Below are positions 35,335-60,839 of a stretch of 64,000 nucleotides of DNA, piece by piece. Below the pieces are notes generated by a model, which was not told the origin of the DNA, made no database searches, and saw nothing but the letters and a program-made list of their open reading frames with translations. Within the stretch, counting starts at the first letter, position 1. Every line of letters starts with the position of its first letter. Origin of the DNA: a virus (lineage: Duplodnaviria > Heunggongvirae > Uroviricota > Caudoviricetes). Made by a program: the position numbers and the translations under genes. Location of the stretch: the IMG/VR virus record IMGVR_UViG_2541047680_000004; one strand, 5' to 3'.

Positions 35335-35352
35335 TTTATTGCTACAATCCAC

Positions 35353-35370
35353 TAAGTAATCACTTACTTA
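35353..35370. promoter_or_regulatory. family-2 dyad TAAGTAA-TCAC-TTACTTA in divergent promoter region
   Basis: perfect 7-4-7 dyad between the ParB-like operon and the helicase operon. Confidence 0.35.
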
Positions 35371-35416
35371 TTATAATAGCCAAATAACATACAAAAGGCA
35401 CTAAGGAAAGAGGTTT

Positions 35417-36976
35417 ATGACTGTTCGGATTGTATCTAACGCAGTTAATGCGCTTATTTCTGGCGCAGATGACAAGGTAAAGCAACTGGTGCAACAGATG
35501 TTGAGCTACGAAGTCGAGACTGGCGACTGGAAGGGCACAAGCACAATGTTCAACTGGAGTAAAAACTCGTTCCCTGCAGGCTTTGCCAAGCCTGTAGCGG
35601 CGAACTTGAACAAGGCGGGCATCAAATGTGTTCATATCCGCAAAGACAAAGCCCCGGCGCTTGGAAAACCAAATCCGGCGGTTAACCCATTCCCATACAA
35701 TCCTGATTATGCGTATCAGGATCAGACTGTGGAAACACTGGTTCGAGAGGGAATGATGATTGCGCAGATCGCTACTGGTGGCGGGAAATCTAACGTTGCC
35801 TGCAAAGCAGCTGCACGTATCGGTCGAATGACATTATTTTTAACAACCCGCTCTGTTCTGATGTTTCAAATGGCCGAAAACTTCCAGAGATCCATCGACT
35901 ACCGCGCCGAAAATGGCGAACCGTGGTTAAAAGACCAAAAGGTTGGAGTCATTGGCTCGGGTGAGTTCCAGGTATCACGACATATCAACGTCGCTACAGT
36001 TCAAACTCTTGCAAGTTTCCTCGAAGAACCACCACGCGATGCAACACCAGATAAGAAAAGCTACCACCTCAAACGTCGGGAGTTGGTGAAACGCTTCCTT
36101 TCAAGTGTCTCTCTTCTTATTCTGGAAGAGGCGCATGAGTCTTCAGGCTCAAATTTCTATGACATCGCCAGATTATGTGTGAACGCAGACTATCGTCTGG
36201 CGCTTACAGCCACGCCGTTCATGAAGGATTCGACGGAAGCCAACATGCGCCTGATGGCGGTGGCCGGGCGAATTGAAATTAAAGTCACAGAAAAGTACCT
36301 GATTGATCGAGGCATTCTGGCAAAGCCGTACTTCCTTTATCATAAAGTTGCCTACAAGCCAGACGAGGCCAGAATCAAGGCCGAACTTGCCAACAAACAC
36401 CTCAATTTTAGAGTTGGTATGAGCACCGCCTACCAAAAGGCTTATCAGTTGGGGATCGTGTATAATTTGGGACGTAACGAGGCCATTGTTCGCGAAGCAT
36501 TGCTCTATAAGCAACATTCTCTCAATTGTATGACTCTGGTTCGTCTTAAACGCCACGGGCAAATCCTGATGGAAATGATGAAAGAGTCCGGCCTTAGAGT
36601 TGACTTCATCTATGGGGAATCTAACCAGGCGACAAGGCAAGCAAAGCTGAACAGTTTAGCGTCTGGAGAAATAGATGTTTTAATAGGCTCGACTATTCTG
36701 GATGTCGGTGTTGATGTGCCAAGCGTTGGTGCGGTCATTCTTGCTGGTGGTGGGAAAGCAGAAGTTGAAATGAGGCAGCGTGTCGGTCGTGGCTTACGAG
36801 CAAAAAAAAATCAGGCAAACGTGTGTTTTATCACTGATTTCATTGACATTAGCAACAAATACCTGTTGTCTCACTCTTATGAGCGAAAACACATCATCGA
36901 CACCACACCTGGCTTTGCAGAAGGTGTATTGCCTATTGATGGAGCATTCGATTTTGGAGTTCTGAAACGAGATTAG
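35417..36976 (+). CDS. superfamily-2 DEAD/DEAH-type helicase
   Basis: motif I ATGGGKS, motif II ILEEAHE, motif III TATP, motif VI QRVGRGLR; about 100-aa N-terminal extension. Confidence 0.85.
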   Translation: MTVRIVSNAVNALISGADDKVKQLVQQMLSYEVETGDWKGTSTMFNWSKNSFPAGFAKPVAANLNKAGIKCVHIRKDKAPALGKPNPAVNPFPYNPDYAYQDQTVETLVREGMMIAQIATGGGKSNVACKAAARIGRMTLFLTTRSVLMFQMAENFQRSIDYRAENGEPWLKDQKVGVIGSGEFQVSRHINVATVQTLASFLEEPPRDATPDKKSYHLKRRELVKRFLSSVSLLILEEAHESSGSNFYDIARLCVNADYRLALTATPFMKDSTEANMRLMAVAGRIEIKVTEKYLIDRGILAKPYFLYHKVAYKPDEARIKAELANKHLNFRVGMSTAYQKAYQLGIVYNLGRNEAIVREALLYKQHSLNCMTLVRLKRHGQILMEMMKESGLRVDFIYGESNQATRQAKLNSLASGEIDVLIGSTILDVGVDVPSVGAVILAGGGKAEVEMRQRVGRGLRAKKNQANVCFITDFIDISNKYLLSHSYERKHIIDTTPGFAEGVLPIDGAFDFGVLKRD

Positions 36977-36978
36977 TT

Positions 36979-37257
36979 ATGAGTGAAAAGAAAACAACTT
37001 ACTGTCAGGTAGCATTGTCTGATAAGGCCAATGACAAACTTGGAAAGTTTCAAGTGAAACTAAAAGAAAAAAATATCAAAATGTCTAAGGCTGAAGTCAT
37101 AAATACCATTCTGGAACAATTGACAATGGCCGACTTTGACAAGGTTATATCTTCTGTCGGGGCTTCCGCTAAGACTCGTGAGAAAATCATGCGTATCTAT
37201 GAGAACTCTAATATGACAAAGGAAGATCTCGAAACGCTATTAAGCAGATTAAAATAA
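36979..37257 (+). CDS. hypothetical small protein
   Basis: 92-aa ORF tightly following the helicase gene. Confidence 0.35.
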   Translation: MSEKKTTYCQVALSDKANDKLGKFQVKLKEKNIKMSKAEVINTILEQLTMADFDKVISSVGASAKTREKIMRIYENSNMTKEDLETLLSRLK

Positions 37258-37325
37258 TCACGCTATCAATTAGGGAGACAAAGATGAAGTCTCCCATACT
37301 GTTCACTTTCTGTTCTAAAACTATC

Positions 37326-37748
37326 ATGAAATACTCGCTTCTCCCTCTACTAACGTTACCAGTGTTGATGCTTACCGCGTGCCAATCACGCCCAATATCA
37401 ATCCATGACGCCAAACCAGCACCGCAGGCCAAAGTGTTCAAGTATCAAAGCGCAGCGCCAGCTACGTTGGTGGTAATGAGAGACACAGGTTTTGTAGGAG
37501 CTGGATGTGATGCTTCCATTTTCATCAACGGCGAAACTGTCGCAAAACTGGCTACAGGCGAAAAAGCGACTTTCCATTTAAATGCCGGAGAATTAATTGT
37601 GGGTGCATCTCTTGAAGGTGCAGGTTTATGTGCTCTAAACCCCGCTCGTCAAGAGCGAGAAACGACTCTGAAGAATGGAGACACAAAAGCGTTCAGGGTG
37701 TTCACCAGCAATTCTGGTGACATCGACATTCTGCCAACAACTCTGTGA
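37326..37748 (+). CDS. lipoprotein
   Basis: signal peptide MKYSLLPLLTLPVLMLTAC with lipobox LTAC; start set at MKYSL. Confidence 0.5.
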   Translation: MKYSLLPLLTLPVLMLTACQSRPISIHDAKPAPQAKVFKYQSAAPATLVVMRDTGFVGAGCDASIFINGETVAKLATGEKATFHLNAGELIVGASLEGAGLCALNPARQERETTLKNGDTKAFRVFTSNSGDIDILPTTL

Positions 37749-37752
37749 TGAC

Positions 37753-38277
37753 ATGACAACCAAAGATATTACCTACGGTATCCAAGCTGAACTCTGGCCG
37801 CGAGATTACACTAACGTTGAAAAACTACTGATGTTCTGGCGCAGAGAACAAATTCCTGTAAGGGTCACTCTCGAAGATGGCCAGGCGTTTTGCATGTACG
37901 TTTATGGCCTCATGCCATCTCGTAACAAAGTTGACCTTTGCCCAGCCCCTTTTGACAAAGAAAATCGTATAAGGCTCCCACTTGAACGCATTAGTACAAT
38001 TGAATCAGGTGTGGTTGACAGTATCGCTCACGATTTCAAAGGTCGACTAACAGTTCACCCTGATTATGTCGATAATCGGCCATCACGCCGCGATTTTTTT
38101 GCAATTTGCAACCAAGCCTACAAAGCAAACAAATCTATAAGGGTGTACATGGCGGATGGCCGTGAAATTGAGGGGGTGTCAGCAGGCGCAGATGCTTGTC
38201 AGGTTACACTACGTGTCGAGAACGGTAGAAAAATAGTTGTTTTGTTCGATTGGGTTGAACGAATTTTGCCTTTTTGA
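37753..38277 (+). CDS. hypothetical protein
   Basis: 174 aa from MTTKDITYG; no motif recognised. Confidence 0.45.
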   Translation: MTTKDITYGIQAELWPRDYTNVEKLLMFWRREQIPVRVTLEDGQAFCMYVYGLMPSRNKVDLCPAPFDKENRIRLPLERISTIESGVVDSIAHDFKGRLTVHPDYVDNRPSRRDFFAICNQAYKANKSIRVYMADGREIEGVSAGADACQVTLRVENGRKIVVLFDWVERILPF

Positions 38278-38280
38278 GTT

Positions 38281-38589
38281 ATGAAATCGATATTGTTACC
38301 ACCATTATTTTTACTTTGCTCAGTTGCGGCAAATGCAATGGACTATAAGCCTGTCATTCAGTCGCTGATGAATGACGTGTGCTCAACGTCTCAGAATGTA
38401 TCAGTTTGCATGTATCAATTTTCGGCAGCCGTAAAAGCAGGAAAAGCGATAGGTGAGAATGTGGAACTGTGTAAGAAAGTGGCAAATGAAGAACGGGCAA
38501 TGTTGGATTGCGAATCTAGCGAGTCATCGGCACAGTTCGTTGATGCGCTATTTGACACCAATCGTAAGGCTGTAGAGTCTGTTCAATAA
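38281..38589 (+). CDS. small secreted protein
   Basis: signal peptide MKSILLPPLFLLCSVAANA; several Cys in mature part. Confidence 0.45.
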   Translation: MKSILLPPLFLLCSVAANAMDYKPVIQSLMNDVCSTSQNVSVCMYQFSAAVKAGKAIGENVELCKKVANEERAMLDCESSESSAQFVDALFDTNRKAVESVQ

Positions 38590-38604
38590 ATCTATAAGGT
38601 TAAT

Positions 38605-38631
38605 AACCGGCTAAGTCCGGTTATTATTTTT
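38605..38631 (+). terminator. rho-independent terminator
   Basis: stem AACCGG/CCGGTT with loop CTAAGT followed by TTATTATTTTT. Confidence 0.6.
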
Positions 38632-38778
38632 CACATCACTTCTTTATATCTATAAATCAAATAATCTAAATATATAAGGTCGAAAGCCGGAATCGATTAT
38701 TTATTTAGGGAACACCTTCGACGATCTCGCTTTTATTTCTAGGACTTTCATCCCTGCAAAAAAAACTTAAAAAAACAC

Positions 38779-38806
38779 TTGCAATCTTTTTTCGCGTATC
38801 GATAAT
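38779..38806 (+). promoter_or_regulatory. sigma70-like promoter of low-GC moron
   Basis: TTGCAA, 16-nt spacer, GATAAT; about 65 nt upstream of the 38872 start. Confidence 0.45.
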
Positions 38807-38871
38807 TGAACTCGTCGAAAGCGAAGACGCTAACGACAATAAATTTTAAATTTACATAAGGAAAAATTATC

Positions 38872-39522
38872 ATGGCTAACATTATCATTTCTAAAAAGTC
38901 CATCATTGAAGCTGCATCTATTGTATCCGACGAGCTGCGCGAAAAAGCAGATCTGGCAACTCAAACATATAACGAACATTATAAAAATGGTACGCACACT
39001 AAAGCAGACAAAGCAAATATGCAAGCTGCGACCACTAAACTTGCTTACTTCATCAACAACGTCGTAAACGCAGTAGAAGACGAAAAATTATGCTCTGTTT
39101 TCTACTATGCGATTAAAGCAAGCAAACAAGCGCCAGAAGTATTTTTCCGTGATGCAATGACTAATAGTTATTCTCTGGAAAAACTGGTTTATCTGGTTAA
39201 ATCAATTAAATCTGGTAAATGCGTTTATTCCGTCGCTGATATGTCTGGATCTCGTGTATTCGCTTTAATCGATATGATTAACGACGAGATCGACACGTTC
39301 ACTAATGGCGCTGTTTTCGATTTAATGAATGAAGCTAAAAAAGCGTGTGAAATTAAATTGGACGCTGGCTATACTCAAGCCAACCAGTTGATCAATCTTT
39401 GCGAACGTCTTGGACTTGTTGAAAAAGTCAAAGGAGCTGGGAGTGCGAAAGCTGGTACTCAGCAATATCGCTTTATTAAAAATGATTTCTACAATTATTT
39501 AGCTGATGCTTTCAAAGCGTAA
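38872..39522 (+). CDS. hypothetical protein (low-GC moron gene 1)
   Basis: 216-aa ORF in AT-rich segment with own promoter and terminators. Confidence 0.5.
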   Translation: MANIIISKKSIIEAASIVSDELREKADLATQTYNEHYKNGTHTKADKANMQAATTKLAYFINNVVNAVEDEKLCSVFYYAIKASKQAPEVFFRDAMTNSYSLEKLVYLVKSIKSGKCVYSVADMSGSRVFALIDMINDEIDTFTNGAVFDLMNEAKKACEIKLDAGYTQANQLINLCERLGLVEKVKGAGSAKAGTQQYRFIKNDFYNYLADAFKA

Positions 39523-39533
39523 TTAATGGAATC

Positions 39534-39554
39534 AAGCGCCCACTATGGGCGCTT
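39534..39554 (+). other. hairpin (copy 1 of GCGCCC-ACTAT-GGGCGC) between moron genes
   Basis: identical stem-loop recurs at 40030-40054 where it carries a T-run; here only TTT follows. Confidence 0.45.
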
Positions 39555-39570
39555 TAAAGGAGCTTTAAAG

Positions 39571-41882: not shown

Positions 41883-41922
41883 ATTTTCACAAATCAGATA
41901 AGGCAGAAAACAAATTGTTATC
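41883..41922. promoter_or_regulatory. family-1 operator element (B-form)
   Basis: ATTTTCACAAATCAGATAAGGCAGAAAACAAATTGTTATC. Confidence 0.5.
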
Positions 41923-41930
41923 GGGCATAA

Positions 41931-43777: not shown

Positions 43778-44100
43778 TGGACCGAAGGCTGACCGTAGGG
43801 GTTTTACGGGGGATAAAATCAGGAGTTGAATAAATACGAAAAAGGAGGCGACACCCCTCCTTCCCTCCCCACTTATACATACCTGGCTTCTTCGCTATAC
43901 ATGTTGTGTTTTCTTCGTGTTTTATCTGTCTCAACCTCTCTATAGGCGTTAATGCTCACTCCTTCCAGAACCTTCTATACGGCGACTATTTCTGTTGGTG
44001 AATTGGGTGTGTTGTTCTCTCTGTCGGTGTATGTGGTTTCGTTCGTTTTGCGGTGGTTCTTCTATGGGGTGTTCTCGTCGTTTTGGTGATTGTTCTTCTC

Positions 44101-44460
44101 CGTGTATGGAGTAATGGCAGGTGGGCGATTCCTTTCGTTATTGTGTTTGAGTTGTTTGTCTGGAGTGTGTGAAAGGCTTTTGTAGTTATTCGTGTATTGG
44201 GTAATGGCGTTTCCCGTGATTGTTATGTTTCGTGTCTTTTGGGATTGAGAGAAACCTTGCGGTTACAGGCTTCGTTGGGGTTTCAGTGATTCTGGTGTTT
44301 CTTCGCTGTTTGGGTAATGGCGTGTCGTGGGTATCGCGCGTATGAATGTTTTCGGATTGCCTGTGAAAGTTAGGTTGGTTGTCCGGTAGCCTGGGGAGAA
44401 GAGGTGGGTCTTTTCGGTAGCCTGCCATAAAGAGGTTGGTTGTTTTGGGTAATGGTATAT
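44101..44460. repeat. direct repeats in GT-rich ORF-free region
   Basis: CGTGTAT(T)GG(A/G)GTAATGGC at 44101, 44191, 44304 and degenerate copy at 44437; strong G+T excess on plus strand across 43960-44700. Confidence 0.55.
44385..44455. repeat. about 70-bp G/T-rich repeat, copy B
   Basis: pairs with 41208-41280. Confidence 0.5.
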
Positions 44461-44701
44461 GTGTTATTTAGTTGTTTTGTTATGCCTGAAAATAAGTTGT
44501 TTATATGGTTGTGTAACGCAACGGGAGCGATTTTGAGCGTGTGTTTTTGTTGGTAGTGTGTTGAGTCGTCTGTGGTGAAAATTGGACGCTGTGGCGCTAT
44601 CTGCTGCGTAGAATTACGGGTATAAGAAGTGATGTGTGATAACGTCAATTTTTTAGACCAAATCGGGAGAAAGCGTTGATGTTTCGTTGATCTGTTATTT
44701 A

Positions 44702-44728
44702 GTTGTTTTCTTATTGGTATAAACAACC
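44702..44728. promoter_or_regulatory. family-1 half-site element
   Basis: GTTGTTTTCTTATTGGTATAAACAACC; would drive minus-strand transcription into the GT-rich region. Confidence 0.35.
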
Positions 44729-44845
44729 ATAACCTATTGATATTTAATGATGTGATTGCTGGTATGGGAGGGGAGTAGTGGCGATCAACGGGTTCTTATA
44801 GAAAAGAATCAAATTGTGACCGCCATTATCAATAAGTTGCAACCG

Positions 44846-45451
44846 TTAGTTGTTCAGATAAACATTTGGAACACGGACGTAGAACTTACTGTTACCGGTA
44901 AGTTCCAGAGTAATGTTAATGTCATTACCATTGTCTAGTGTAGCCGTCGCTCTATAGAACTTATCAGTTACCTTTTCGTCAATATTAACCTTGATGCATT
45001 TCGCCGCAGTAGAACCATTATGCTCTTTCAGAATAGTTGTCACGACAGGACATGCGGCTTCCTCAATGACGCCATCTTCCTGTTTCGGTATTACAATGAA
45101 GAATACGTAAGCCAGCAAGGTAACGACTATAATAAATGGCAGTCTACTGCTCTTTGTTATAGTCGCACGCTTCCATAGGTAGATTGGCATGAAAACTATT
45201 CCCCATAAAATAGCAGGTGGCTCATAGCCGGATTCCGAAATCGCCATTCTGTCAGCCACTAATAATCCGATGGCAGCTAAACTTCCAATTAATACAGCAT
45301 AATTTGCATACTCTTCGTTCGGAATGCCGAAGCAAATTGGAATAAAAGCTAAAATCCACGCATAAGTGTTATTCAAAGGTTTTTTTTGTTGGTTATTGGT
45401 TTCCATCACATCCATCTCATCACTTAAATTACTTGTATATATTATCAACAT
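44846..45451 (-). CDS. membrane protein (three or four N-terminal TM helices plus soluble C-terminal domain)
   Basis: hydrophobic segments WILAFIPICF, VLIGSLAAIGLLV, AILWGIVFMPIYL, FIIVVTLLAYVFFIV; AT-rich segment. Confidence 0.5.
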   Translation of the reverse strand: MLIIYTSNLSDEMDVMETNNQQKKPLNNTYAWILAFIPICFGIPNEEYANYAVLIGSLAAIGLLVADRMAISESGYEPPAILWGIVFMPIYLWKRATITKSSRLPFIIVVTLLAYVFFIVIPKQEDGVIEEAACPVVTTILKEHNGSTAAKCIKVNIDEKVTDKFYRATATLDNGNDINITLELTGNSKFYVRVPNVYLNN

Positions 45452-45527
45452 TTAACAAACATAACCTAAACACACAGCAGATATAGCATTACAAACTCAT
45501 TGTGAAAACCATTATCATAGGAAACGA

Positions 45528-45713
45528 TTAGATGAGATGGTCTAATTCATCATCTATCATGGCTTTGACGCTGGAGTCATTCACTCCATATTTATTTATG
45601 AGCTGTTTCAGCTCTGGCGAAAACTGAAGGTAGATATCGTGAGCGTTTTTCACTGTAGGTTCAACGCCACGCATTTCAAGCGCCTTTAGTAGATATGAGT
45701 CTTCTTTAAGCAT
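45528..45713 (-). CDS. hypothetical small protein
   Basis: 61-aa ORF. Confidence 0.3.
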   Translation of the reverse strand: MLKEDSYLLKALEMRGVEPTVKNAHDIYLQFSPELKQLINKYGVNDSSVKAMIDDELDHLI

Positions 45714-45749
45714 AAATTCTCCGTTATCTAGTATGAAGCGATTGCCGGA

Positions 45750-46049
45750 TTACCATTGCCAGCACTCAAGCCCTTCAACGACCGGTGCGCCACAATCAAA
45801 ATGTACAGAGTCAAAGCCTACATCAAGTACTTTCTGAATGTTCGCAATCGCGCCCTCGGATATACCATATCGACGCAACTCATCTATCCAGTCATCGTCC
45901 TGTAACCCGGCGTGGACAATGCAACCGTACTCAATTTGTGAAACCCAATCCAGCTCATTGCTTGCGATCATGAATCGGCGAGCATCTTCCTCTGATGTAT
46001 GAGATGAGCTGATCAATGCCACCTGGTAGGCTTGGGTAATGTTCAACAT
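45750..46049 (-). CDS. hypothetical protein
   Basis: ATG start at 46049 with RBS GGAGTGG; family-1 operator pair immediately upstream. Confidence 0.4.
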   Translation of the reverse strand: MLNITQAYQVALISSSHTSEEDARRFMIASNELDWVSQIEYGCIVHAGLQDDDWIDELRRYGISEGAIANIQKVLDVGFDSVHFDCGAPVVEGLECWQW

Positions 46050-46062
46050 TTCAACCACTCCA

Positions 46063-46095
46063 AAACAAGTTGTTTTCTTATGTGGTTTATTATCT
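46063..46095. promoter_or_regulatory. family-1 operator/promoter element
   Basis: AAAACAAGTTGTTTTCTTATGTGGTTTATTATC. Confidence 0.5.
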
Positions 46096-46107
46096 CCATC
46101 AACAAAA

Positions 46108-46130
46108 GGCAGAAAACATATTGTTTTAGG
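46108..46130. promoter_or_regulatory. family-1 operator element (B-form)
   Basis: GGCAGAAAACATATTGTTTTAGG about 40 bp from metG terminator. Confidence 0.5.
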
Positions 46131-46162
46131 TACTGTGTAAATCAGAAGGGATTGTGTCTATA

Positions 46163-46190
46163 TGAAAATGCCCGGCGTGTTGCCGGGCAT
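46163..46190 (-). terminator. metG rho-independent terminator
   Basis: stem ATGCCCGGC/GCCGGGCAT, loop GTGTT, U-run on minus-strand transcript. Confidence 0.7.
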
Positions 46191-46210
46191 TGCGAAGAGA
46201 GGTTGTTTAA

Positions 46211-48244
46211 TTACTTAACCTGGTGGCCAGGTTTAGCACCAGCATCCGGGCTTAACAGGAAGATATCTTTCCCGCCGGGGCCAGCAGCCATCACCATGCC
46301 TTCAGAGATACCGAAGCGCATTTTACGCGGAGCCAGGTTAGCCACCATAATTGTGTGACGACCAATCAGTGCCTGTGGGTCTGGATAAGCAGAACGGATG
46401 CCTGAGAAGACATTACGCTTTTCACCACCGAGATCCAGCGTCAGGCGCAGCAGCTTGTCAGAACCTTCAACAAACTCTGCGTTTTCAATCAGCGCCACGC
46501 GCAGGTCAACTTTAGCGAAGTCGTCAAAGGTGATGGTTTCCTGAATCGGGTCGTCTGCCAGTGGGCCAGTTACCGGTGCGGCTGTGGCTTTCACTTCTTC
46601 TTTGGATGCTTCCACCAGTGCTTCCACCTGTTTCATATCGATACGGTTATACAATGCCTTGAACGGATTCACTTTATGGCCCAGCAGCGGTTGCTGGATA
46701 CCATCCCAGGTCAGTTCTGTATTCAGGAATGCTTCTGCACGTTCAGTCAGTTTCGGCAGTACCGGTTTCAAGTAAGTCATCAGCACGCGGAACAGGTTAA
46801 TGCCCATAGAGCAAATCGCCTGCAGATCGGCATCGCGTCCTTCCTGCTTCGCCACCACCCACGGAGCCTGTTCATCAACATAGCGGTTAGCCAGGTCAGC
46901 CAGTGCCATGATTTCACGGATAGCTTTACCAAATTCGCGGCTTTCCCATGCTTCGCCAATCACTTCAGCGGCATCAGTAAAGGTTTTGTACAGTTGCGGG
47001 TCAGCCAGTTCGCTTGCCAGCACGCCGTCAAAACGCTTGTTGATAAAGCCTGCATTACGGGAGGCCAGGTTAACCACTTTGTTCACGATATCGGCATTCA
47101 CGCGCTGAACGAAATCCTCCAGGTTGAGATCGATATCATCAATGCGCGAAGAGAGTTTCGCAGTGTAGTAGTAACGCAGGCTGTCGGCGTCAAAATGATT
47201 CAGCCAGGTGCTGGCTTTAATAAAGGTACCGCGAGACTTAGACATCTTCGCGCCGTTCACCGTCACATAGCCATGAACAAACAGGTTGGTCGGCTTGCGG
47301 AAGTTGCTGCCTTCCAGCATTGCTGGCCAGAACAGACTGTGGAAGTAAACAATATCTTTACCGATGAAGTGGTACAGCTCGGCGGTGGAGTCTTTCTTCC
47401 AGTATTCATCGAAGCTTACGCTGTCGCCGCGCTTGTCGCACAGATTCTTGAAAGAACCCATATAGCCAATCGGCGCATCTAGCCAGACGTAGAAATATTT
47501 ACCCGGCGCGTTCGGAATTTCAAAACCGAAATACGGCGCGTCGCGGGAGATATCCCACTGTTGCAGGCCAGATTCAAACCACTCCTGCATTTTATTTGCC
47601 ACCTGCTCCTGCAACGCACCGCTGCGGGTCCATGCCTGCAACATTTCGCTGAAAGAGGGCAGATCAAAGAAGAAGTGTTCAGAATCACGCATTACCGGCG
47701 TAGCGCCAGAAACCACCGATTTCGGCTCGATCAATTCAGTCGGGCTGTAGGTCGCGCCGCAGACTTCGCAGTTATCGCCGTATTGATCCGGGGATTTACA
47801 TTTCGGGCAGGTGCCTTTCACAAAACGATCCGGCAGGAACATGCCTTTTTCCGGGTCGTACAACTGAGAGATAGTGCGATTTTTAATAAAACCGTTCTCT
47901 TTCAGGCGAGTATAGATAAGCTCAGACAACTGACGGTTCTCTTCGCTGTGCGTCGAGTGATAGTTGTCATAGCTGATGTTAAAGCCTGCGAAATCAGTCT
48001 GGTGTTCCTGACTCATTTCGCCAATCATCTGCTCCGGTGTGATACCAAGTTGCTGTGCTTTCAGCATGATCGGCGTACCGTGGGCATCGTCGGCACAGAT
48101 GAAATTAACCTCGTGGCCGCGCATTCGCTGGTAACGAACCCAGACATCAGCCTGGATGTGCTCCAGCATATGGCCGAGGTGGATTGAGCCGTTAGCGTAC
48201 GGCAGCGCGCACGTCACCAGAATTTTCTTCGCGACTTGGGTCAT
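46211..48244 (-). CDS. metG: methionine--tRNA ligase
   Basis: 677 aa from [25 protein letters not shown] (HIGH-type) with KMSKS; C-terminal tRNA-binding domain; near-identical to enterobacterial MetG as I recall it. Confidence 0.97.
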
Positions 48245-48401
48245 AGTAGGCATTACTTCTTTGTAGTGAAAAGGGGCTTGATAGTAACAAAATGGCCTTA
48301 TGTCTGCCATGTGATAACAGCATTTCTCATAAATGATTAAATGTCGCAGCTGGAGTACACTACAAGGCGACAATTGCGCAAATTAAAATAAAGGAGACGG
48401 G

Positions 48402-49502
48402 ATGAGCGAGTCCAAATCGCCGGATGCCCTGAGAGCAATGGTAGCCGGTACGCTGGCTAATTTTCAGCACCCAACCCTGAAACACAACCTGACTACGCTT
48501 AAAGCGTTACACCATGTTGCGTTGATGGATGACACACTGCATGTCGAACTAATCATGCCTTTCGTGTGGAATAAGCCTTTTGAAGACCTGAAAGAGCAAT
48601 GTAGTGGTGATCTGCTCCGTATCACTGGCGCAAAGGCTATTGACTGGAAGCTGTCGTACAACATTGCCACGCTTAAGCGCGTCAAAAACCAACCAGGCAT
48701 TAATGGTGTTAAGAATATTATCGCCGTAAGCTCAGGCAAGGGCGGTGTAGGCAAATCGTCCACAGCAGTAAACTTGGCACTGGCTTTGGCTGCTGAAGGT
48801 GCGAAAGTTGGTATTTTGGATGCCGATATCTATGGTCCATCAATTCCAACCATGCTGGGCGCGGAAAACCAACGTCCAACCTCACCGGACGGTACTCACA
48901 TGGCACCTATCATGTCTCATGGCCTGGCAACCAACTCTATTGGTTATCTGGTCACCGACGACAATGCAATGGTGTGGCGTGGACCGATGGCCAGCAAGGC
49001 GCTGATGCAGATGTTGCAGGAAACACTGTGGCCTGATCTGGACTATCTCGTTCTCGATATGCCGCCGGGCACTGGTGATATTCAATTGACGCTGGCGCAG
49101 AACATTCCTGTAACTGGTGCGGTTGTGGTAACTACGCCGCAAGACATCGCGCTGATCGATGCGAAGAAAGGCATTGTGATGTTCGAAAAAGTCGAAGTGC
49201 CGGTACTAGGTATCGTCGAAAACATGAGTGTGCATATTTGCAGTAACTGCGGTCATCACGAGCCAATTTTTGGCACCGGTGGCGCACAGAAACTGGCCGA
49301 GAAATACAACACGCAGTTGTTAGGCCAAATGCCACTTCATATCTCTCTTCGTGAAGATCTGGATAACGGAACACCAACCGTTATTAGTCGTCCAGATAGC
49401 GAATTTACGGCTATTTATCGTGACCTCGCAGATCGCGTTGCTGCCCAAATGTATTGGCAAGGTGAAGTAATACCTGGCGAAATCGCATTCCGCGCAGTGT
49501 GA
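48402..49502 (+). CDS. apbC: Fe-S cluster carrier ATPase Mrp/ApbC
   Basis: P-loop SSGKGGVGKS, CxxC motif (CSNCGH); divergent from metG as in E. coli. Confidence 0.95.
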   Translation: MSESKSPDALRAMVAGTLANFQHPTLKHNLTTLKALHHVALMDDTLHVELIMPFVWNKPFEDLKEQCSGDLLRITGAKAIDWKLSYNIATLKRVKNQPGINGVKNIIAVSSGKGGVGKSSTAVNLALALAAEGAKVGILDADIYGPSIPTMLGAENQRPTSPDGTHMAPIMSHGLATNSIGYLVTDDNAMVWRGPMASKALMQMLQETLWPDLDYLVLDMPPGTGDIQLTLAQNIPVTGAVVVTTPQDIALIDAKKGIVMFEKVEVPVLGIVENMSVHICSNCGHHEPIFGTGGAQKLAEKYNTQLLGQMPLHISLREDLDNGTPTVISRPDSEFTAIYRDLADRVAAQMYWQGEVIPGEIAFRAV

Positions 49503-49503
49503 T

Positions 49504-49530
49504 AAAAAGGTGGTGCAATGCACCACCTAA
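49504..49530 (-). terminator. terminator hairpin between convergent mrp and UmuD'-like gene
   Basis: inverted repeat GGTGGTG / CACCACC with U-run on minus-strand RNA. Confidence 0.5.
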
Positions 49531-49539
49531 ACAGTTCTC

Positions 49540-49929
49540 CTACATCACAGGACAATCATCAAACTCGCCACTTCTTGCGTCGTTGATAATGTGAGTGATC
49601 ACACCAAACACGGCATTGCTGCCCGTGCATCCATCATCATCCTTTGGCAATGCTTCCTTCTTACCAGTTCTTAAATCCTCCAGATGCTGACGTGGATACT
49701 TCCGGTATCTTTTTACGCGATATTCCCCATCCAGAGCACATACAAGAAGAGATCCATCAACAGGAGTCAGTGAGGAATCGACCACCAGCAATGCACCCTG
49801 CAATATTCCCTCACGATGATGACTATCAGCCGCCCTCATGAAGTAGGTCGCTGAAGGATGTCTAATTATCTGCTGATCAAGAGAAATACGGCTCTCAGCA
49901 TAATCCGCCGCAGGAGAAGGGAAGCCCAT
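49540..49929 (-). CDS. UmuD'-like S24 peptidase-fold protein (HumD-like)
   Basis: begins MGFPSPAADY, aligning with UmuD from the RecA cleavage site onward; Ser (ADSH) and Lys (RVKR) positions conserved; in-frame TAA 15 nt upstream of ATG; RBS AAGAGG. Confidence 0.85.
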   Translation of the reverse strand: MGFPSPAADYAESRISLDQQIIRHPSATYFMRAADSHHREGILQGALLVVDSSLTPVDGSLLVCALDGEYRVKRYRKYPRQHLEDLRTGKKEALPKDDDGCTGSNAVFGVITHIINDARSGEFDDCPVM

Positions 49930-49945: not shown

Positions 49946-49965
49946 TGCTGTATATGCATACAGTA
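49946..49965. promoter_or_regulatory. LexA (SOS) box
   Basis: TGCTGTATATGCATACAGTA = CTGT-N8-ACAG, 16 nt upstream of the UmuD'-like start. Confidence 0.8.
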
Positions 49966-50260: not shown

Positions 50261-50293
50261 AAAAAAGCCCAGTTGACTAGGCTGGGCTTTTTA
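50261..50293. terminator. bidirectional rho-independent terminator
   Basis: AAAAAAGCCCAG..CTGGGCTTTTT. Confidence 0.65.
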
Positions 50294-50299
50294 AAAGGA

Positions 50300-50716
50300 A
50301 ACAGAGTTTGCGCCTCTGTTCCTGAGCCATAAGTATCTGGCGACTGAGCTAAGATTAACCGAATGTACTGGATTCATCAAGAAACGTTGAGCCGTCATGC
50401 TAGGTAATAATGACCATTTACCAAACATCGTTGTTCTCAAAGAAGATTTAAGTCCAGGTTTTTGGTGACTCTAAAACCTTACCTTAACTCGAAATCGTGC
50501 CGTAAGTATCTGGCGACTACAGATATTGCAACTGCAAAGGCAAGCTCAAAGGTATTTGCAGCTAGGTGCGATAAAACTAAGTGAGGCCTATAGTGCTTAA
50601 CTTACTTTTCAAAATCGTGCCGCCTATGTTCGCAATCATCGAAGCGATCATTGAGTACGTCAACCAGCGCCCATAATGCTAGTTGTTACCGGCCCCATCC
50701 AAATGGGGCCATTTTA
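50300..50716 (+). ncRNA. candidate structured noncoding region / small RNA locus
   Basis: ORF-free; direct repeats TAAGTATCTGGCGACT (50330, 50503) and AAATCGTGCCG (50492, 50612); hairpins; plus-strand terminator GGCCCCAT..ATGGGGCC then ATTTTATTG at 50690-50716. Confidence 0.25.
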
Positions 50717-50725
50717 TTGTATTGA

Positions 50726-51358
50726 CTACATACTTTCTGATCTAATTGAGTTGTTCACTGCTCTGGCAATTTTCTCCCGCAATTGCTGCGTTCCGTGGTA
50801 CTGAACCGCAATATCCCGCAACTCATTCACCAGTTCTCTAATCTGGTGATCTTTAAGCTCATTATTTGGGTGATGGGCAACAACTCTGGTTAATTCACCC
50901 TTGTCTTTTGCTCTTACGTATGCAGCTCTTGTGCATTCGACCCATGTATTACCGCCTACATTAACTTCGTAGATTAGGCTGGACTTATCTGTCAATTCGG
51001 AACAAATACGGGCCGTGGTCTGGCAACTAGAGCATTCGCAGTTATCGCGGAAACCGTGATCTACCGGTCGAGAAAGAGGTTTAACTTTTTCATCCAACTT
51101 CATCACAGCATCGTGATAAGCGTTCCAGCCGTCATCTTTACCAAGTTGATAAATCTCTGAAGGCTCCATGTAGTCTATATCGCAACCTTCTTCATCTGAT
51201 CTATCTGGTCGTTTCCCTGGTAATCGTTCATAAAAACGATTTCTGTCTCGACGTTCGGCTCTCAGTGCTAACGCAAGAAGTTGCTCAAGCGAGGTATTTG
51301 CACCAGCAATAATTTCATTGAGAATATCTTCTGTGAGATCTTTCGCTACCGTGCTCAT
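50726..51358 (-). CDS. hypothetical protein
   Basis: 210-aa ORF with Cys cluster CECSSCQ. Confidence 0.4.
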   Translation of the reverse strand: MSTVAKDLTEDILNEIIAGANTSLEQLLALALRAERRDRNRFYERLPGKRPDRSDEEGCDIDYMEPSEIYQLGKDDGWNAYHDAVMKLDEKVKPLSRPVDHGFRDNCECSSCQTTARICSELTDKSSLIYEVNVGGNTWVECTRAAYVRAKDKGELTRVVAHHPNNELKDHQIRELVNELRDIAVQYHGTQQLREKIARAVNNSIRSESM

Positions 51359-51942
51359 TTATCTCTCTCAGTATGTTGCGATGGCGTAAATTTGACGACA
51401 TCAAATATTTTGGATGGCATCAACTTTATCCGCGAGCTTAGTTCGGCTCTTCTCTGTAATGCGGTTAATAATGTTTTCGTTCTGACGCCTTCGTGTATCC
51501 TCATCCCTGGCACAAGGACTACATCGCAGGGGAGATGCTCAGGTGACAAATCATTTTGGGCATCACCAATAAGTTGTGTAATCTCTCTTTCAAGCCGACC
51601 GCCTAACTCCGTTTTAGTGCAATGTTCTGACCAATCGCCAGCCTCAAGAAGCGCGAGAATGTTTAAAATATCGTCCACAAGAGCAGTAGTGTCGCCGATG
51701 ACAGGAAAGGGATCGGCATAAAGCGCGACAATATCCCCAATCGTTTTTTGTTCCGCATCCTCAATATCTAAATATGCCGGAGTCGAAACAATTGCCGGAT
51801 CGGCCAAATCATCTTTCATTACAAACGCAGATGGCTTTTGTTCAGACAAGGCCAGTAACACATTCGCCATACGATGTGCGATGTGCTTTTTTCCGTAATC
51901 CTTTGTTGCCTGTGTTAGTTCTTCTTTTGTCATTTCAATCAT
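51355..51942 (-). CDS. hypothetical protein
   Basis: 195-aa ORF, ATGA overlap with neighbour. Confidence 0.4.
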   Translation of the reverse strand: MIEMTKEELTQATKDYGKKHIAHRMANVLLALSEQKPSAFVMKDDLADPAIVSTPAYLDIEDAEQKTIGDIVALYADPFPVIGDTTALVDDILNILALLEAGDWSEHCTKTELGGRLEREITQLIGDAQNDLSPEHLPCDVVLVPGMRIHEGVRTKTLLTALQRRAELSSRIKLMPSKIFDVVKFTPSQHTERDK

Positions 51943-52475
51943 CGTAAGGCATCCTCCACACTTAGCAGTCCGTTCCGCAAAAGATAATCCATCGCCCTAT
52001 CCGGTAATTTGCAATCAGGTTTTGCTTTTTTCAGTTGGCTGACCAATTGTTTAACCAGCATTGTTAATTCGATAACCTGGTAGCGCGGCAATGGTGAATT
52101 ATCGGCTTTACCCTGGATGACTGAACGTCCTTTCTCCTCCTTCGACGGTTCTGGCTGCGCCATGTAAAGCGGGGCAACATGTGCGACAGAACCGAGTGAC
52201 TCATGTATCCGAACCCATGTATCTTTCTCTGCACAGTCACGGTAAATAATAGAGACTGATTCCTGATCGTTTTTTGTGAGTGTTACCAGCCACGCCACTG
52301 GCTCTGCCTCCAGTGAGGTCAGTGCAATTCGAGCCAGTTTTAGATCTCGTTCAACCATCTCATGAACAACTTTGCAGTCCGCTCCTTCTTTACTAACACG
52401 TCCTTTCAAGTCTTCCAGATAACTAACGCTTTCGCGTGCATGGGAGATTAACTGTTCTTTGGTAAAGGTGGTCAT
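51939..52475 (-). CDS. hypothetical protein
   Basis: 178-aa ORF in coupled gene string. Confidence 0.4.
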   Translation of the reverse strand: MTTFTKEQLISHARESVSYLEDLKGRVSKEGADCKVVHEMVERDLKLARIALTSLEAEPVAWLVTLTKNDQESVSIIYRDCAEKDTWVRIHESLGSVAHVAPLYMAQPEPSKEEKGRSVIQGKADNSPLPRYQVIELTMLVKQLVSQLKKAKPDCKLPDRAMDYLLRNGLLSVEDALR

Positions 52476-52663: not shown

Positions 52664-53201
52664 GCTGACCCTCTTTGGTGAAAACGCCTGATGCAATACT
52701 GTTTATGATGCTGTCAGTACAGGGAGTAGAAAGCTGGGCATCTCCAGCTATTTTCATGACTTCGACATCCGCATATCGAATACCGAGGTGTATCAGACCT
52801 GCTATACCTGACTTAAGTCGAACATTTTCCATAAACAGATCCTTTTCCCGCTGTTTAACGGTCTCCAGCTCAACACGCAGTTTCTCAAGCGTTAGGGCCA
52901 TCTCTACGTTCTCCTGCTCAAGACGTCGGATGTGTTGCTGTCTTTTATCCAGTTCGTCCAGCAGTGCAATCACATCGGGATCACTATCATCAACTACTGT
53001 TACGCGTGATTTTTCATAATGTTCGTCTGCAAAAGTACGCCCTATCTTAAAATATCCGTCATCACCCTCACCGGAACAGGCATAAACAACATGTGCTCCA
53101 GATATGCGCTGTATTGACATTTCCTCGCCACAAACAGAGCATTTAGGCGCTGGTTTTGGTGAATAACGTTCACGTAACGTCAGGTAGTAAATCTCATTCA
53201 C
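52635..53201 (-). CDS. zinc-ribbon plus coiled-coil protein
   Basis: CSVCGEE..YACSGEG Cys pairs; central coiled-coil-like segment. Confidence 0.4.
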   Translation of the reverse strand: MNEIYYLTLRERYSPKPAPKCSVCGEEMSIQRISGAHVVYACSGEGDDGYFKIGRTFADEHYEKSRVTVVDDSDPDVIALLDELDKRQQHIRRLEQENVEMALTLEKLRVELETVKQREKDLFMENVRLKSGIAGLIHLGIRYADVEVMKIAGDAQLSTPCTDSIINSIASGVFTKEGQHDENSRSSR

Positions 53202-53653
53202 TGTTTAGCTCCTGTACGAAGCTCAGCGGCAAAAGCTACTGCGTGATCATGATGTTCAAGTGTGTATGCGCACTCAGCAAACATCTCCACGCCCTGCGCA
53301 CGTACTTCAGCCAGAAAAGCATCGGTTGCTGGAGTCTCCGTTAATTCGCTAACCCAATTATCTCCGTGTTCCTCGGCACACATCGCATCGAATGCTCGCT
53401 CAGATTCTTTCAGGGCTGCATTCTCCGCCGCTAATGCGTCTCTCTGCGCCCGCAACTTCTCAATTTCGGCAGCCATGTAGTAACCAACCATAGCGAAAGT
53501 GGCGAAAGGGTAGTCCGAATCATCAGGAGATACGGAGGCCATTAGCAGACCATCGTGCATGTTCTGGCTTCCATCAGTGATGGATACCGCATAAGAATCG
53601 CTGGTTTCCCGTTTATACAATACGACGACCGGGTTCTTGATTTTCTCTCTCAT
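53198..53653 (-). CDS. hypothetical protein
   Basis: 151-aa ORF. Confidence 0.4.
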   Translation of the reverse strand: MREKIKNPVVVLYKRETSDSYAVSITDGSQNMHDGLLMASVSPDDSDYPFATFAMVGYYMAAEIEKLRAQRDALAAENAALKESERAFDAMCAEEHGDNWVSELTETPATDAFLAEVRAQGVEMFAECAYTLEHHDHAVAFAAELRTGAKQ

Positions 53654-54207
53654 TACGATGCCTCTAACTTGTCTAACTCTTTCAGCCCTTCACGTACCGC
53701 GTTCACAATGCGTTCCAGATACTGGTATTTCGGGTTTGGTATCGTTGGCCAGTCGGCATACCACGGATCATCACCAAATAGATTCAGCAGTTTGTTACCG
53801 ATGCCGAGACAACAGCAGCTTTCTTTGACATCATCTGCGTTTTCCGCCTCGACCCACATTTCGCGAGCCTGTACAGCATCGATTTCTCTCTCTCTTCGTA
53901 ACTTTATGATTTCTGACTTCACGAAAAGCAGATTTGCATCGTTGTCATCGTCGACCGTGCTTAGCAGTTGAGGGTCGAAATTGTCGATTAGATAGTCGTT
54001 GCTAACTCGCTTGATGAACGTCTGCACATCATCACCGCCCATAGCAAACCAAGCCGCAGTCCACGCTTTTCCGTAGCAGGTGATGGTGATTCTTCCCTTA
54101 CCAGGTTCGTAGTTTTCAATCATCACTCGAACCGGATCGAGGCGTTCCAGATCCGTCAGCACAAAGGAAAGAACATCTATTTTTTCGACCTTCATGCAGC
54201 CTCCCAC
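53653..54207 (-). CDS. hypothetical protein
   Basis: 184-aa ORF. Confidence 0.4.
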   Translation of the reverse strand: MGGCMKVEKIDVLSFVLTDLERLDPVRVMIENYEPGKGRITITCYGKAWTAAWFAMGGDDVQTFIKRVSNDYLIDNFDPQLLSTVDDDNDANLLFVKSEIIKLRREREIDAVQAREMWVEAENADDVKESCCCLGIGNKLLNLFGDDPWYADWPTIPNPKYQYLERIVNAVREGLKELDKLEAS

Positions 54208-54833
54208 GCGCTCCAGATCAGCGATTTGTGTTTTTCATAACGTTTGATGTGTACCGGTTTCAGAAGCGCAATACCTTCTGTCACTTTCGCCATTGCGCTT
54301 AATAGCAACGGGTGTTCTATACCTACCCTCTCCATGTACTCGACAACATCAGCATTGGCACCAATCTCTTTGCCGTTAAAGAGTACGTCCAGCATCAGTT
54401 CTTTCTCTGCAAGGTAGATAGCTGAAAACTCAGGATCGCGACTCACGATAGAAGAGGTATTGTCCAGCAGGTCAGCCAGCTTGATCATGCGCGTCTGCAT
54501 GTTGAGATTTTGCTCCAGCTCCCGGACATTGATGATGAAACGCTGTATTCGATTGCCGTCTTCTGGCCTTGCAATGTTGGTCAGAGCCAGAACCATTTCA
54601 GCTACGCGCTCACCGAAGTGATCACGAACCATCTCTATGGTTACATTTGTGTCTTCGACCACATCATGCAGAAGCGCCGCGATCTGCATCTCCACGGTTC
54701 CGTCATGCAATGCAACGATCTCTCGGACAGCAACCGGATGATTTATATAATCTTCACCTGTATATTTTCTTTTCTGACCAACGCCACCATGAGCGCCAGC
54801 GGCGAACATATGTGCTTCGGAAATACTAGACAT
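54192..54833 (-). CDS. SpoT/RelA-like HD-domain hydrolase (small alarmone hydrolase candidate)
   Basis: YINHPVAV and AALLHDVVEDT match the (p)ppGpp-hydrolase HD signature; 213 aa, no synthetase domain. Confidence 0.75.
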   Translation of the reverse strand: MSSISEAHMFAAGAHGGVGQKRKYTGEDYINHPVAVREIVALHDGTVEMQIAALLHDVVEDTNVTIEMVRDHFGERVAEMVLALTNIARPEDGNRIQRFIINVRELEQNLNMQTRMIKLADLLDNTSSIVSRDPEFSAIYLAEKELMLDVLFNGKEIGANADVVEYMERVGIEHPLLLSAMAKVTEGIALLKPVHIKRYEKHKSLIWSAWEAA

Positions 54834-54842
54834 TCTTAACTC

Positions 54843-54905
54843 CGTTGTTTTCTAGTTGTGGTTATTTTCACAAATAAGAAAAGGCAGAAAACAATTTATT
54901 TAAGG
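54843..54905. promoter_or_regulatory. composite family-1 operator pair upstream of HD-hydrolase gene
   Basis: TTGTTTTCT half-site plus AAGGCAGAAAACAATTTATTT. Confidence 0.5.
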
Positions 54906-60740: not shown

Positions 60741-60839
60741 ATAAACTCCTGAATCAAGCGCCGCGCCGATTTTTCCTCGCGCGTGCGCACACGCGTGCGT
60801 GTTAATAATTATTAAAATAAACAAATTACTTCCCAGAAC

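Follow-up and report, generated by a model that had tools for sequence, protein, structure and literature searches.

Two housekeeping genes, metG and mrp (apbC), stand side by side between two arms of phage-type sequence in a 64,000-nucleotide stretch of viral DNA (the window; IMG/VR record IMGVR_UViG_2541047680_000004). How did the two genes come to lie there, and do they belong to a bacterial chromosome or to the phage?

Organization of the metG–mrp locus

The window contains an intact metG–mrp pair flanked by phage-type arms that share an operator-like motif, as an initial annotation of the sequence had described (Table 1). MetG is identical to its K-12 counterpart at 672 of 677 residues (94.6% nucleotide identity; dN/dS 0.013) and is 99.4% identical to MetG of the phage Cyrano. 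The protein matches the NCBIfam model NF001100 at 1018.8 bits (cut-off 587) and contains the Pfam domains tRNA-synt_1g, Anticodon_3 and tRNA_bind. It displays the features of a class I methionine–tRNA ligase (MetRS), namely the HIGH (HLGH) and KMSKS motifs, the zinc-knuckle cysteines (CPKC...CEVC), an anticodon-binding domain and a C-terminal tRNA-binding domain. Across 11 alleles, no fixed amino-acid change specific to phage-plasmids was found in MetG. The hairpin 3' of metG has no counterpart at 80 chromosomal loci; it is absent from the output of the consensus terminator scan and was folded separately.

Mrp is identical to the K-12 protein at 346 of 365 residues and 100% identical to the copies in Cyrano, PhiR41_1 and CMS-2020a. 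It is a full-length equivalog of ApbC/Mrp (NF008669, 759 bits with a cut-off of 348; Pfam PF10609), in which the deviant Walker A motif GKGGVGKS and the CxxC motif are both conserved relative to K-12. At the nucleotide level, mrp is only ~82% identical to any chromosome. The intergenic region is divided in a similar manner: ~75 bp beside metG are near-identical to K-12, the rest on the mrp side is unalignable with Escherichia chromosomes, and the sliding-window identity breaks at positions 48249–48333.

Table 1. Coordinates of the metG–apbC cassette, its backbone neighbours and other features of the window
Feature	Position	Strand	Basis or detail
DUF5983 family gene (left-arm backbone; CYRAN_101 homologue)	45750–46049	-	Pfam PF19419, 48.7 bits; annotation in relatives
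DUF5983 promoter/operator cassette	46064–46125	-	Repeat families D1–D4 and motif search
Cargo slot in backbone, here filled by metG-apbC	46141–49539	.	Backbone homology to other-cargo relatives breaks at edges
Putative terminator, GC-rich hairpin 3' of metG, inside cassette	46167–46191	-	-19.1 kcal/mol, z = -6.1
metG, methionine–tRNA ligase, 677 aa, intact	46211–48244	-	Equivalog match and K-12 alignment
K-12-like (E. coli chromosomal type) gene-conversion tract in metG	47273–47794	-	Gene positions 451–972
metG–mrp divergent intergenic/promoter region, 157 bp	48245–48401	.	K-12 alignment
apbC/mrp, Fe-S cluster carrier P-loop NTPase, 366 aa, intact	48402–49502	+	Equivalog match and K-12 alignment
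Hairpin between mrp stop and humD stop	49508–49528	.	Terminator scan (minus strand); folds -15.8 and -15.3 kcal/mol
humD, P1-type UmuD'-like translesion polymerase subunit (right-arm backbone)	49540–49929	-	NF051876 HumD equivalog, 219.8 bits
SOS (LexA) box upstream of humD	49948–49963	.	Read from sequence
IS10 end	63786–64000		RNA-OUT and sequence

The operator-like motif AACAANNTGTTTTCT occurs in 14 copies in the window, compared with 0.11 expected in a motif search. Six copies are located in the left arm (41145, 41905, 42812, 43297, 46064 and 46111), four in the right arm (54886, 57798, 58512 and 59241) and four elsewhere (1139, 4919, 32007 and 32032). Two inverted copies, at 46064–46078 (+) and 46111–46125 (-), are positioned on either side of a GATAAT-type -10 element, and the latter lies ~42 bp from the metG hairpin, in agreement with the operator that the initial annotation had placed near the metG terminator. 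On the mrp side, where phage sequence and operators had been described as following immediately, humD coding sequence indeed starts at once, but the first copy of the motif is found ~5.4 kb beyond mrp. Similarly, the hairpin interpreted as an mrp terminator exists, but its U-run is present on the minus strand only, and it is therefore mainly the terminator of humD. The humD gene is ~85% identical to P1/P7 humD at the nucleotide level, and its P1 homologue is annotated as 'LexA regulated function'. The upstream SOS box, CTGTATATGCATACAG, fits the CTGT-N8-ACAG LexA consensus.

The edges of the cargo slot are defined by two related plasmids, pTB212 and pHNAH968, which align to the window up to 46126/46140, resume at 49540 and contain a DUF4145 gene in between. 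The DUF4145 gene in the same slot of both plasmids may be a new observation. A joined-flank query retrieved no plasmid with abutting flanks, only these two with a different cargo gene. The slot appears to be bounded by two transcription units of the backbone, with the DUF5983 operon on one side and humD on the other, and the cassette would be a divergent host-derived gene pair that brings its own intergenic promoters. In one E. marmotae plasmid, der adjoins apbC.

Identity of the element

The window is colinear with the circularly permuted Cyrano/pLF82 genome over 54.5 of its 64 kb (85%) at 75–99% identity, and both arms, as had been suspected, belong to one element. The Cyrano-aligned portion covers terminase, capsid, tail, lysis, parA and parB. 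An SSU5-like structural and lysis module at window positions 2667–32098 corresponds to Cyrano 28149–1 (75–99% identity; gaps at 4161–6307 and 6852–7092) and by this alignment contains the lysis, tail fibre, J, tape measure, capsid, portal and terminase genes. The ParA region (73–1209) corresponds to Cyrano 30336–29200 and the ParB region (32099–37232) to Cyrano 108379–103246. Cyrano repA (60633–61688) falls outside the span covered by the window, and the Cyrano integrase gene likewise maps beyond it; no integrase domain was detected in the window ORFs tested, as the initial annotation had noted.

The 8 kb around the cassette match 70 circular plasmids of ~108–110 kb at 95–97% identity and the phages Cyrano, PhiR41_1 and CMS-2020a, and the best-matching records are circular with lengths of 108–112 kb. 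A survey of 5,426 complete E. coli genomes located the left flank at 218 places in 216 of them, all on plasmids and none on a chromosome, and no form integrated at metG was found. Judged through the complete genomes of its relatives, the element is predicted to be maintained extrachromosomally. Its nearest kin appear to be of the Cyrano/pLF82, p09EL50, pECOH89 and Shigella sonnei p38/pWPMR2 type. We assign a probability of roughly 90% to the reading that the window is a contiguous part of a circular, extrachromosomal phage-plasmid of the SSU5/pHCM2 supergroup, Escherichia lineage, with host-derived metG and apbC/mrp in a cargo slot. The window is thus a phage-plasmid rather than a chromosome with prophage arms, and other findings from it should be read in that light.

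Chromosomal homology is confined to positions 46202–49509, which comprise the two genes and the intergenic region. Homology to 80 Enterobacteriaceae chromosomes ends no more than 9 bp from each stop codon, and the window lacks yehE and yehF, which adjoin the locus in K-12. The same metG–apbC junctions are found in ~200 Escherichia/Shigella plasmids (~100–120 kb) and in three named phages represented by four records (Cyrano, PhiR41_1 and CMS-2020a). In PLSDB, 201 records contain the cassette at a coverage of at least 80%, nearly all of them non-mobilizable Escherichia/Shigella plasmids of ~100–120 kb. Nearly every member of the Escherichia lineage found has the cassette, as do ~4% of the complete E. 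coli genomes (216/5,426). Salmonella contributes 5 of 210 plasmid records matching the cassette; the one listed of these is a 500-kb record with 83% identity and of the chromosomal type.

A query spanning 44–52 kb of the window, cassette included, was matched in all 5,426 genomes. The identity of mrp is bimodal, with 216 records (220 plasmid places) at 90% or above versus 5,335 records (5,341 chromosomal places) at 80–90%. Chromosomal apbC is distributed over 5,338 genomes, and strain Esc21 has both the plasmid and a chromosomal apbC. In relatives, the cassette genes are thus additional to the chromosomal copies. For a donor search, the Mrp protein was compared with one genome per species (185,579 species); none of the best 80 loci had matching flanks, mrp identity at these loci was at most 95% for the protein and 83% for the nucleotide sequence, and the search yielded no donor.

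These data bear on the proposal that the element is interrupted by 3.3 kb of core chromosome, in which a chromosomal mrp–metG locus would lie between prophage halves separated by an inversion or other rearrangement (with IS10 as one possible agent) or between two related adjacent prophages. The protein identities to K-12 (99% for MetG and 95% for Mrp) and the IS10 end at 63786, correctly recognized in the initial annotation, are compatible with such an origin. However, chromosomal sequence does not extend past either stop codon in any of the 80 species, the flanks are chromosomal at none of the 218 places, and mrp is of the plasmid type. The arrangement is moreover the ordinary colinear order of ~200 independent, complete circular phage-plasmids and of packaged phage genomes. 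The IS10 insertion is located 14 kb from the cassette at the right end of the window and disrupts a different gene; apart from the IS10 RNA-OUT, the region gave no hit when scanned against Rfam and for tRNAs and tandem repeats. An IS10-mediated rearrangement, two elements at adjacent sites and a prophage integrated at the chromosomal locus are all refuted by these observations, and a split prophage is exceedingly improbable. An assembly chimera of chromosomal and phage-plasmid contigs, for which nothing speaks except the oddity of the housekeeping genes, is hardly credible since many closed plasmids and phage genomes, each assembled independently, contain the two junctions, and the mrp allele is confined to the plasmid lineage. 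Of the alternatives in the initial annotation, the third holds, in which a phage-plasmid captured host genes.

Different histories of metG and mrp

The two captured neighbours are set apart by their trees, GC3 and sliding-window identity. The mrp gene exhibits a long stem branch, saturated synonymous divergence and a GC3 lowered towards the G+C of the element. The metG gene cannot be told from Escherichia chromosomal alleles. Relative to chromosomes, dN/dS is 0.013–0.02; among the phage-plasmid alleles, metG has a pN/pS of 0.015 and mrp one of 0.013, and internal stops occur in 0 of 11 alleles. These ratios indicate strong purifying selection on both genes within the phage-plasmid lineage.

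Inside its K-12-like tract, the window metG matches K-12 at 16 of 19 informative sites, compared with 7 of 84 outside (maximum chi-square 51.4; permutation p ≤ 0.003), and the sliding-window identity to K-12 reaches 99–100% in parts of the tract. Conversion tracts are significant in several metG alleles (p ≤ 0.003–0.007), being K-12-like in the window and p09EL50 and E. ruysiae-like in pMTY18780-3. The differing histories of metG and mrp and the conversion tracts may be new.

The pair was most likely captured long ago, in what would be a single event, from an early Escherichia-lineage chromosome, and metG with its promoter has most likely been overwritten repeatedly since then via homologous recombination with host chromosomal metG. 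Over this time, mrp would have diverged past easy recombination and drifted towards the composition of the element, and metG would have been held in the chromosomal allele pool through repeated conversion by each resident host. An ancient capture of mrp presumes roughly clock-like synonymous change, and a faster rate in the phage-plasmid would yield a younger age. To judge from der in the E. marmotae plasmid, the slot may trap housekeeping genes in general. On balance, the metG–apbC cassette is perhaps best regarded as an evolutionary chimera that makes the phage-plasmid a shuttle for essential-gene alleles. If exchange from plasmid to chromosome also occurs, the infectious element would move metG alleles between Escherichia species. 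The new part of these results is evolutionary and consists of the sharply different histories of captured neighbours and the statistical support that an infectious element continues to recombine with an essential host gene.

Possible function of the cassette

Phage-plasmid-borne metG is already known, and published work connects it with the survival of Shigella under antibiotics. As summarised in PMC12452169, Tam et al. 2024 (medRxiv 10.1101/2024.10.27.24316207) found that phage-plasmid-borne metG promotes antimicrobial survival in S. sonnei, where it is reported to create a better-surviving subpopulation under antimicrobials, with variable copy number. This published link in epidemic Shigella gives the cassette clinical relevance. 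Cyrano is present at 5.5 copies per cell and produces virions, and its apbC (CYRAN_99) is expressed in lysogens at 9x local background; metG is not among the Cyrano genes listed as expressed above background in lysogens of LF82 (PMC9928086). PhiR41_1 was deposited as a phage with K-12 as its host. If the copy number of Cyrano applies, the element would add several expressed copies of near-wild-type MetRS per cell, and because these copies are essentially wild-type, the effect would be one of dosage and not of an altered enzyme. The added dosage may give an antimicrobial-tolerant subpopulation, as reported for the S. sonnei elements.

Alternatively, the cassette could chiefly aid lytic growth of the phage, in that Met-tRNA would still be charged, translation initiated and Fe-S enzymes matured as the functions of the host fade, with host tolerance as a side effect. 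The element encodes many host-like genes for replication and nucleotide metabolism (Pol III alpha, RNR, ThyX, DHFR, RecA and tRNAs), and MetRS genes are found in a few other phage records, among them Microcystis phage MaAM05 and some very large uncultured phages. This role is nevertheless rather unlikely, given that metG and apbC keep host-type promoters and the cassette is devoid of AACAANNTGTTTTCT copies, that Cyrano apbC is expressed during lysogeny (PMC9928086), and that SSU5 and the Salmonella lineage manage without the cassette. It is very unlikely that the cassette is a neutral passenger, that is, functionless host DNA not yet lost. The lack of phage-plasmid-specific change in MetG and the two relatives with other cargo would fit a passenger, but pN/pS is ~0.015 in both genes with every allele intact, mrp has persisted while its synonymous divergence reached saturation and its GC3 shifted, and nearly all Escherichia-lineage members found retain the cassette. 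Expression of apbC in Cyrano lysogens (PMC9928086) and the metG phenotype, as far as it is summarised in PMC12452169, also argue against a passenger.

Comparison with known systems

The phage-plasmid represented by the window shares the slot, cassette and junctions with Cyrano (pLF82, OV696614 / NC_011917) and with the E. coli-lineage pHCM2/SSU5-like elements (p09EL50, pECOH89 and pDG342-type). It differs from Cyrano in accessory segments at 1210–2666, 4161–6307, 44834–45749, 51068–52458 and 52965–54858, in the IS10 insertion at 63786, and in the K-12-like metG tract, which Cyrano lacks. A link between the cassette and the KacT-type acetyltransferase toxin of Cyrano was considered, since Met-tRNAfMet is a target of acetylation by certain GNAT toxins, but was not adopted.

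The S. sonnei plasmid p38 (NZ_CP099775) contains the same cassette at 97.7% identity. In the secondary accounts of the pWPMR2 type (PMC12452169 and bioRxiv 10.1101/2025.09.12.675607, both citing Tam et al. 2024), the element is, like the window, an SSU5-supergroup phage-plasmid with a metG, there additional to the chromosomal one; pWPMR2 is described from S. sonnei and from E. coli CC131/CC23/CC73. The window metG is likewise full-length (677 aa, no stops) and occupies the same locus as in p38. The survival phenotype, as those accounts relate it, is that of the S. sonnei elements. SSU5 and pHCM2 (S. Typhi) belong to the same supergroup and, like the window, are extrachromosomal with a common backbone architecture. 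In contrast to the window, SSU5 lacks a MetRS gene (none among the tblastn matches), and its megablast match to the 8-kb region is limited to 128 bp.

A second aminoacyl-tRNA synthetase encoded on a plasmid is also known from the MupA and MupB IleRS enzymes of mupirocin resistance, which are divergent, inhibitor-insensitive variants. The window resembles them in that an extra synthetase gene on a mobile replicon would accompany the chromosomal copy. A MupA-like model of a resistant variant synthetase was rejected because MetG has no lineage-specific substitution. Unlike MupA and MupB, the window MetRS shares 99.3% identity with the host enzyme, and any effect of it must therefore be one of dosage or expression.

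Identity of the element

The metG-mrp cassette resides in an extrachromosomal phage-plasmid, and a chromosomal location is rejected. Over its full length, the 8-kb region surrounding the cassette is found at 95–97% identity in 70 circular E. coli plasmids of ∼108–110 kb, and it also has matches in the phages Cyrano, PhiR41_1 and CMS-2020a. Once circularly permuted, the genome of the SSU5-like Escherichia phage-plasmid Cyrano (pLF82; OV696614) is colinear with the entire window, with 54.5 of 64 kb aligned. The left flank of the cassette (45000–46200) is found at 218 places in 216 of 5,426 complete E. coli genomes; every one of these places is plasmid-borne, with no chromosomal occurrence. Homology to the chromosomal loci of 80 Enterobacteriaceae species is restricted to 46202–49509, and yehE and yehF, which adjoin the locus in K-12, are absent around metG-mrp.

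The initial annotation described an intact metG-mrp pair between two phage-type arms with common motifs, and these features are confirmed in the sequence. The motif AACAANNTGTTTTCT occurs in 14 copies in the 64-kb window (≤1 mismatch; 0.11 expected), in the left and right arms as well as close to parA and to the terminase end, and is included in ∼70-nt repeat families located upstream of minus-strand genes. Because the motif occurs in both arms, the arms belong to one element, as had been proposed. The main reading of that annotation, an element interrupted by core chromosome, fails on the plasmid-only flank and the confined homology, and its suggested comparison with the E. coli mrp-metG locus points the same way. 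A chromosomal metG-mrp locus with prophage arms is likewise rejected by the left flank. Colinearity with Cyrano, together with the plasmid-only flank, the limited chromosomal homology and the missing yehE and yehF, also excludes an IS10-mediated inversion or rearrangement after integration and two related elements at adjacent sites, and misassembly is further contradicted by recurrence in circular plasmids. The alternative of host gene capture by a phage-plasmid proved correct.

Features of the cassette, its neighbours and the Cyrano-colinear segments
Feature	Window coordinates	Strand	Description
Cyrano 30336-1	73-32098		parA, lysis, tail, head, terminase
Cyrano 108379-99791	32099-39565		parB, helicase
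Cyrano 99803-76014	39777-63784		
DUF5983 gene	45750-46049	minus	left neighbour of cassette; Pfam
Promoter/operator cassette (putative)	46064-46125		precedes DUF5983 gene
Hairpin 3' of metG	46167-46191		strong, -19.1 kcal/mol (folding)
metG	46211-48244	minus	677 aa, intact; 672/677 identical to K-12 MetG
apbC/mrp	48402-49502	plus	366 aa, intact; 346/365 identical to K-12 Mrp
Hairpin between mrp and humD stops	49508-49528		U-run on minus strand, hence chiefly the humD terminator (terminator scan, folding)
humD, P1-type	49540-49929	minus	right neighbour of cassette
LexA box	49948-49963		accompanies humD; read from sequence

Several other sequence features were observed in the window. The operator-like motif often forms an inverted pair, ∼33–35 bp apart, around a -10-like GATAAT (for example 46064–46125, 41883–41930 and 54838–54900), and these pairs are positioned upstream of minus-strand early genes. 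Two more copies, 25 bp apart, adjoin the terminase end (32007–32046). To the right (upstream) of humD, a non-coding stretch (50300–50720) bordered by hairpins (50266–50283 and 50691–50710) holds two copies each of TAAGTATCTGGCGACT (∼50331 and ∼50507) and AAATCGTGCCG (∼50493 and ∼50612); it has no match in Rfam and may encode a small RNA or have a regulatory role. The 1-kb window 44001–45000 exhibits a strong composition anomaly (GC skew +0.365, AT skew -0.308), with which degenerate ∼30-nt repeats of families D5 and D7 (44096–44446) coincide. The adjacent region 44834–45749 is not in Cyrano and encodes a 201-aa protein without a Pfam match. An IS10 end occupies 63786–64000 (CTGATGAATCCCCTAATGATTTTGG...), with RNA-OUT at 63830–63899. 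Cyrano homology ends at window position 63784 (Cyrano 76014), within a CYRAN_77-type 3'-5' exonuclease (Pol III epsilon-like) gene, which IS10 appears to interrupt.

The cargo slot and its contents

The metG and apbC/mrp genes are transcribed divergently from a 157-bp intergenic gap. Both proteins match NCBIfam models at the equivalog level, and profile searches locate every MetRS domain in MetG. In the related plasmids pTB212 and pHNAH968, the backbone is retained to window position 46126–46140 and resumes at 49540, but a DUF4145 gene fills the slot (pTB212 locus L084, 4745–5488; pHNAH968 locus L085, 4745–6012). Since the backbone edges are the same and the gene differs, positions 46141–49539 represent, on sequence comparison, an exchangeable cargo slot separating two backbone transcription units. 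The pHNAH968 DUF4145 gene is either split or has two extra small ORFs beside it, and a type I restriction-modification M subunit is also nearby in pTB212.

The cassette alone is present in 201 PLSDB records (coverage ≥80%), 188 of them with 95–99% identity. The carriers are almost all non-mobilizable plasmids of ∼100–120 kb from E. coli, Shigella sonnei, E. albertii, E. fergusonii and E. marmotae. Sequence searches found no MetRS gene in SSU5. In the 166-kb E. marmotae plasmid NZ_CP146383.1 (locus L089, 6551–8023), apbC is followed by der at the usual humD position. Der/EngA is a ribosome-biogenesis GTPase encoded by an essential housekeeping gene, and genes of this kind from the host may accumulate in the slot. 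Adjacent metG and mrp homologues (57–66% and 48–59% protein identity) also appear in records of Pseudomonas phage Y5 (OQ572407.1) and Acinetobacter phage MD-2021a (CAKLQF020000011.1 / CAKLQH020000007.1); these cases may reflect either separate capture events or bacterial contigs binned in error.

Different histories of metG and mrp

The phage-plasmid mrp alleles constitute a clade (support 100%) with a long stem branch, and the Escherichia chromosomal alleles are its sister clade (support 94.5%). Their nucleotide identity to any chromosome is ∼80–84%, synonymous sites are saturated (dS 1.4 to >2), and GC3 is lowered to 51–54%, compared with 59–63% in Escherichia chromosomes. The plasmid mrp type (at least 90% identity; 216 records, 220 plasmid places) is sharply separate from the chromosomal type (80–90% identity; 5,335 records, 5,341 chromosomal places), and strain Esc21 harbours plasmid and chromosomal copies within one genome. 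The phage-plasmid metG alleles fall inside the Escherichia chromosomal radiation; they group with Escherichia alleles at 100% support, and their own monophyly is supported at 13.5%. Their dS (0.27–0.42) is as between Escherichia species, and their GC3 equals the chromosomal value. A sliding window places the switch between histories in the intergenic region at 48249–48333, and the ∼75 bp adjoining metG are nearly identical to K-12.

A mosaic test identified a chromosomal-type tract in the window metG at gene positions 451–972 (47273–47794; p ≤ 0.003), with K-12 matches at 16 of 19 informative sites inside versus 7 of 84 outside. Significant chromosomal-type tracts were also detected in metG of p09EL50 (positions 240–792) and in mrp of Cyrano and pWP4-S18 (positions 309–432), and pMTY18780-3 metG contains significant E. 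ruysiae-like blocks. These patterns suggest that the pair was captured once, long ago, and that host chromosomes would then have converted metG again and again.

Selection, possible function and relation to known phage-plasmids

Strong purifying selection acts on both genes. Relative to chromosomal homologues, dN/dS is 0.013–0.02; among 11 phage-plasmid alleles, none of which is disrupted, pN/pS is 0.015 (metG) and 0.013 (mrp). MetG has no phage-plasmid-specific fixed substitution among the 11 alleles compared. Mrp has ∼19, mostly in its N- and C-terminal parts (residues 1–90 and 296–362; window 48402–48670 and 49290–49490); its central P-loop core is unaltered, and its N-terminus is 3 aa shorter than that of chromosomal Mrp. 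The metG and apbC carried by this extrachromosomal phage-plasmid are intact, of host type and under selection, and come with a promoter region of their own.

Cyrano is an inducible phage-plasmid with 5.5 copies per cell, and its apbC (CYRAN_99, annotated as MinD) is expressed in the lysogen at 9x the local background (PMC9928086). PMC12452169, citing Tam et al., associates S. sonnei multidrug resistance with phage-plasmid metG in multiple, variable copies, and adds that expressed phage-plasmid metG yields a subpopulation predisposed to acquire resistance. On these reports, several element copies per cell would supply extra metG, apbC would be expressed in lysogens, and more metG would raise antimicrobial survival. 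Because the MetG protein is not a variant, we infer that the effect results from MetRS dosage. Alternatively, the cassette may have a role in the lytic cycle.

Annotations of the metG-apbC feature already exist in hundreds of records, and published work has reported it. The discordant gene histories, conversion tracts and alternative cargo are modest additions, which may or may not figure in Tam et al. A 2025 preprint assigns pWPMR2, the element of Tam et al., to the SSU5 supergroup and records its occurrence in S. sonnei as well as in E. coli CC131, CC23 and CC73.
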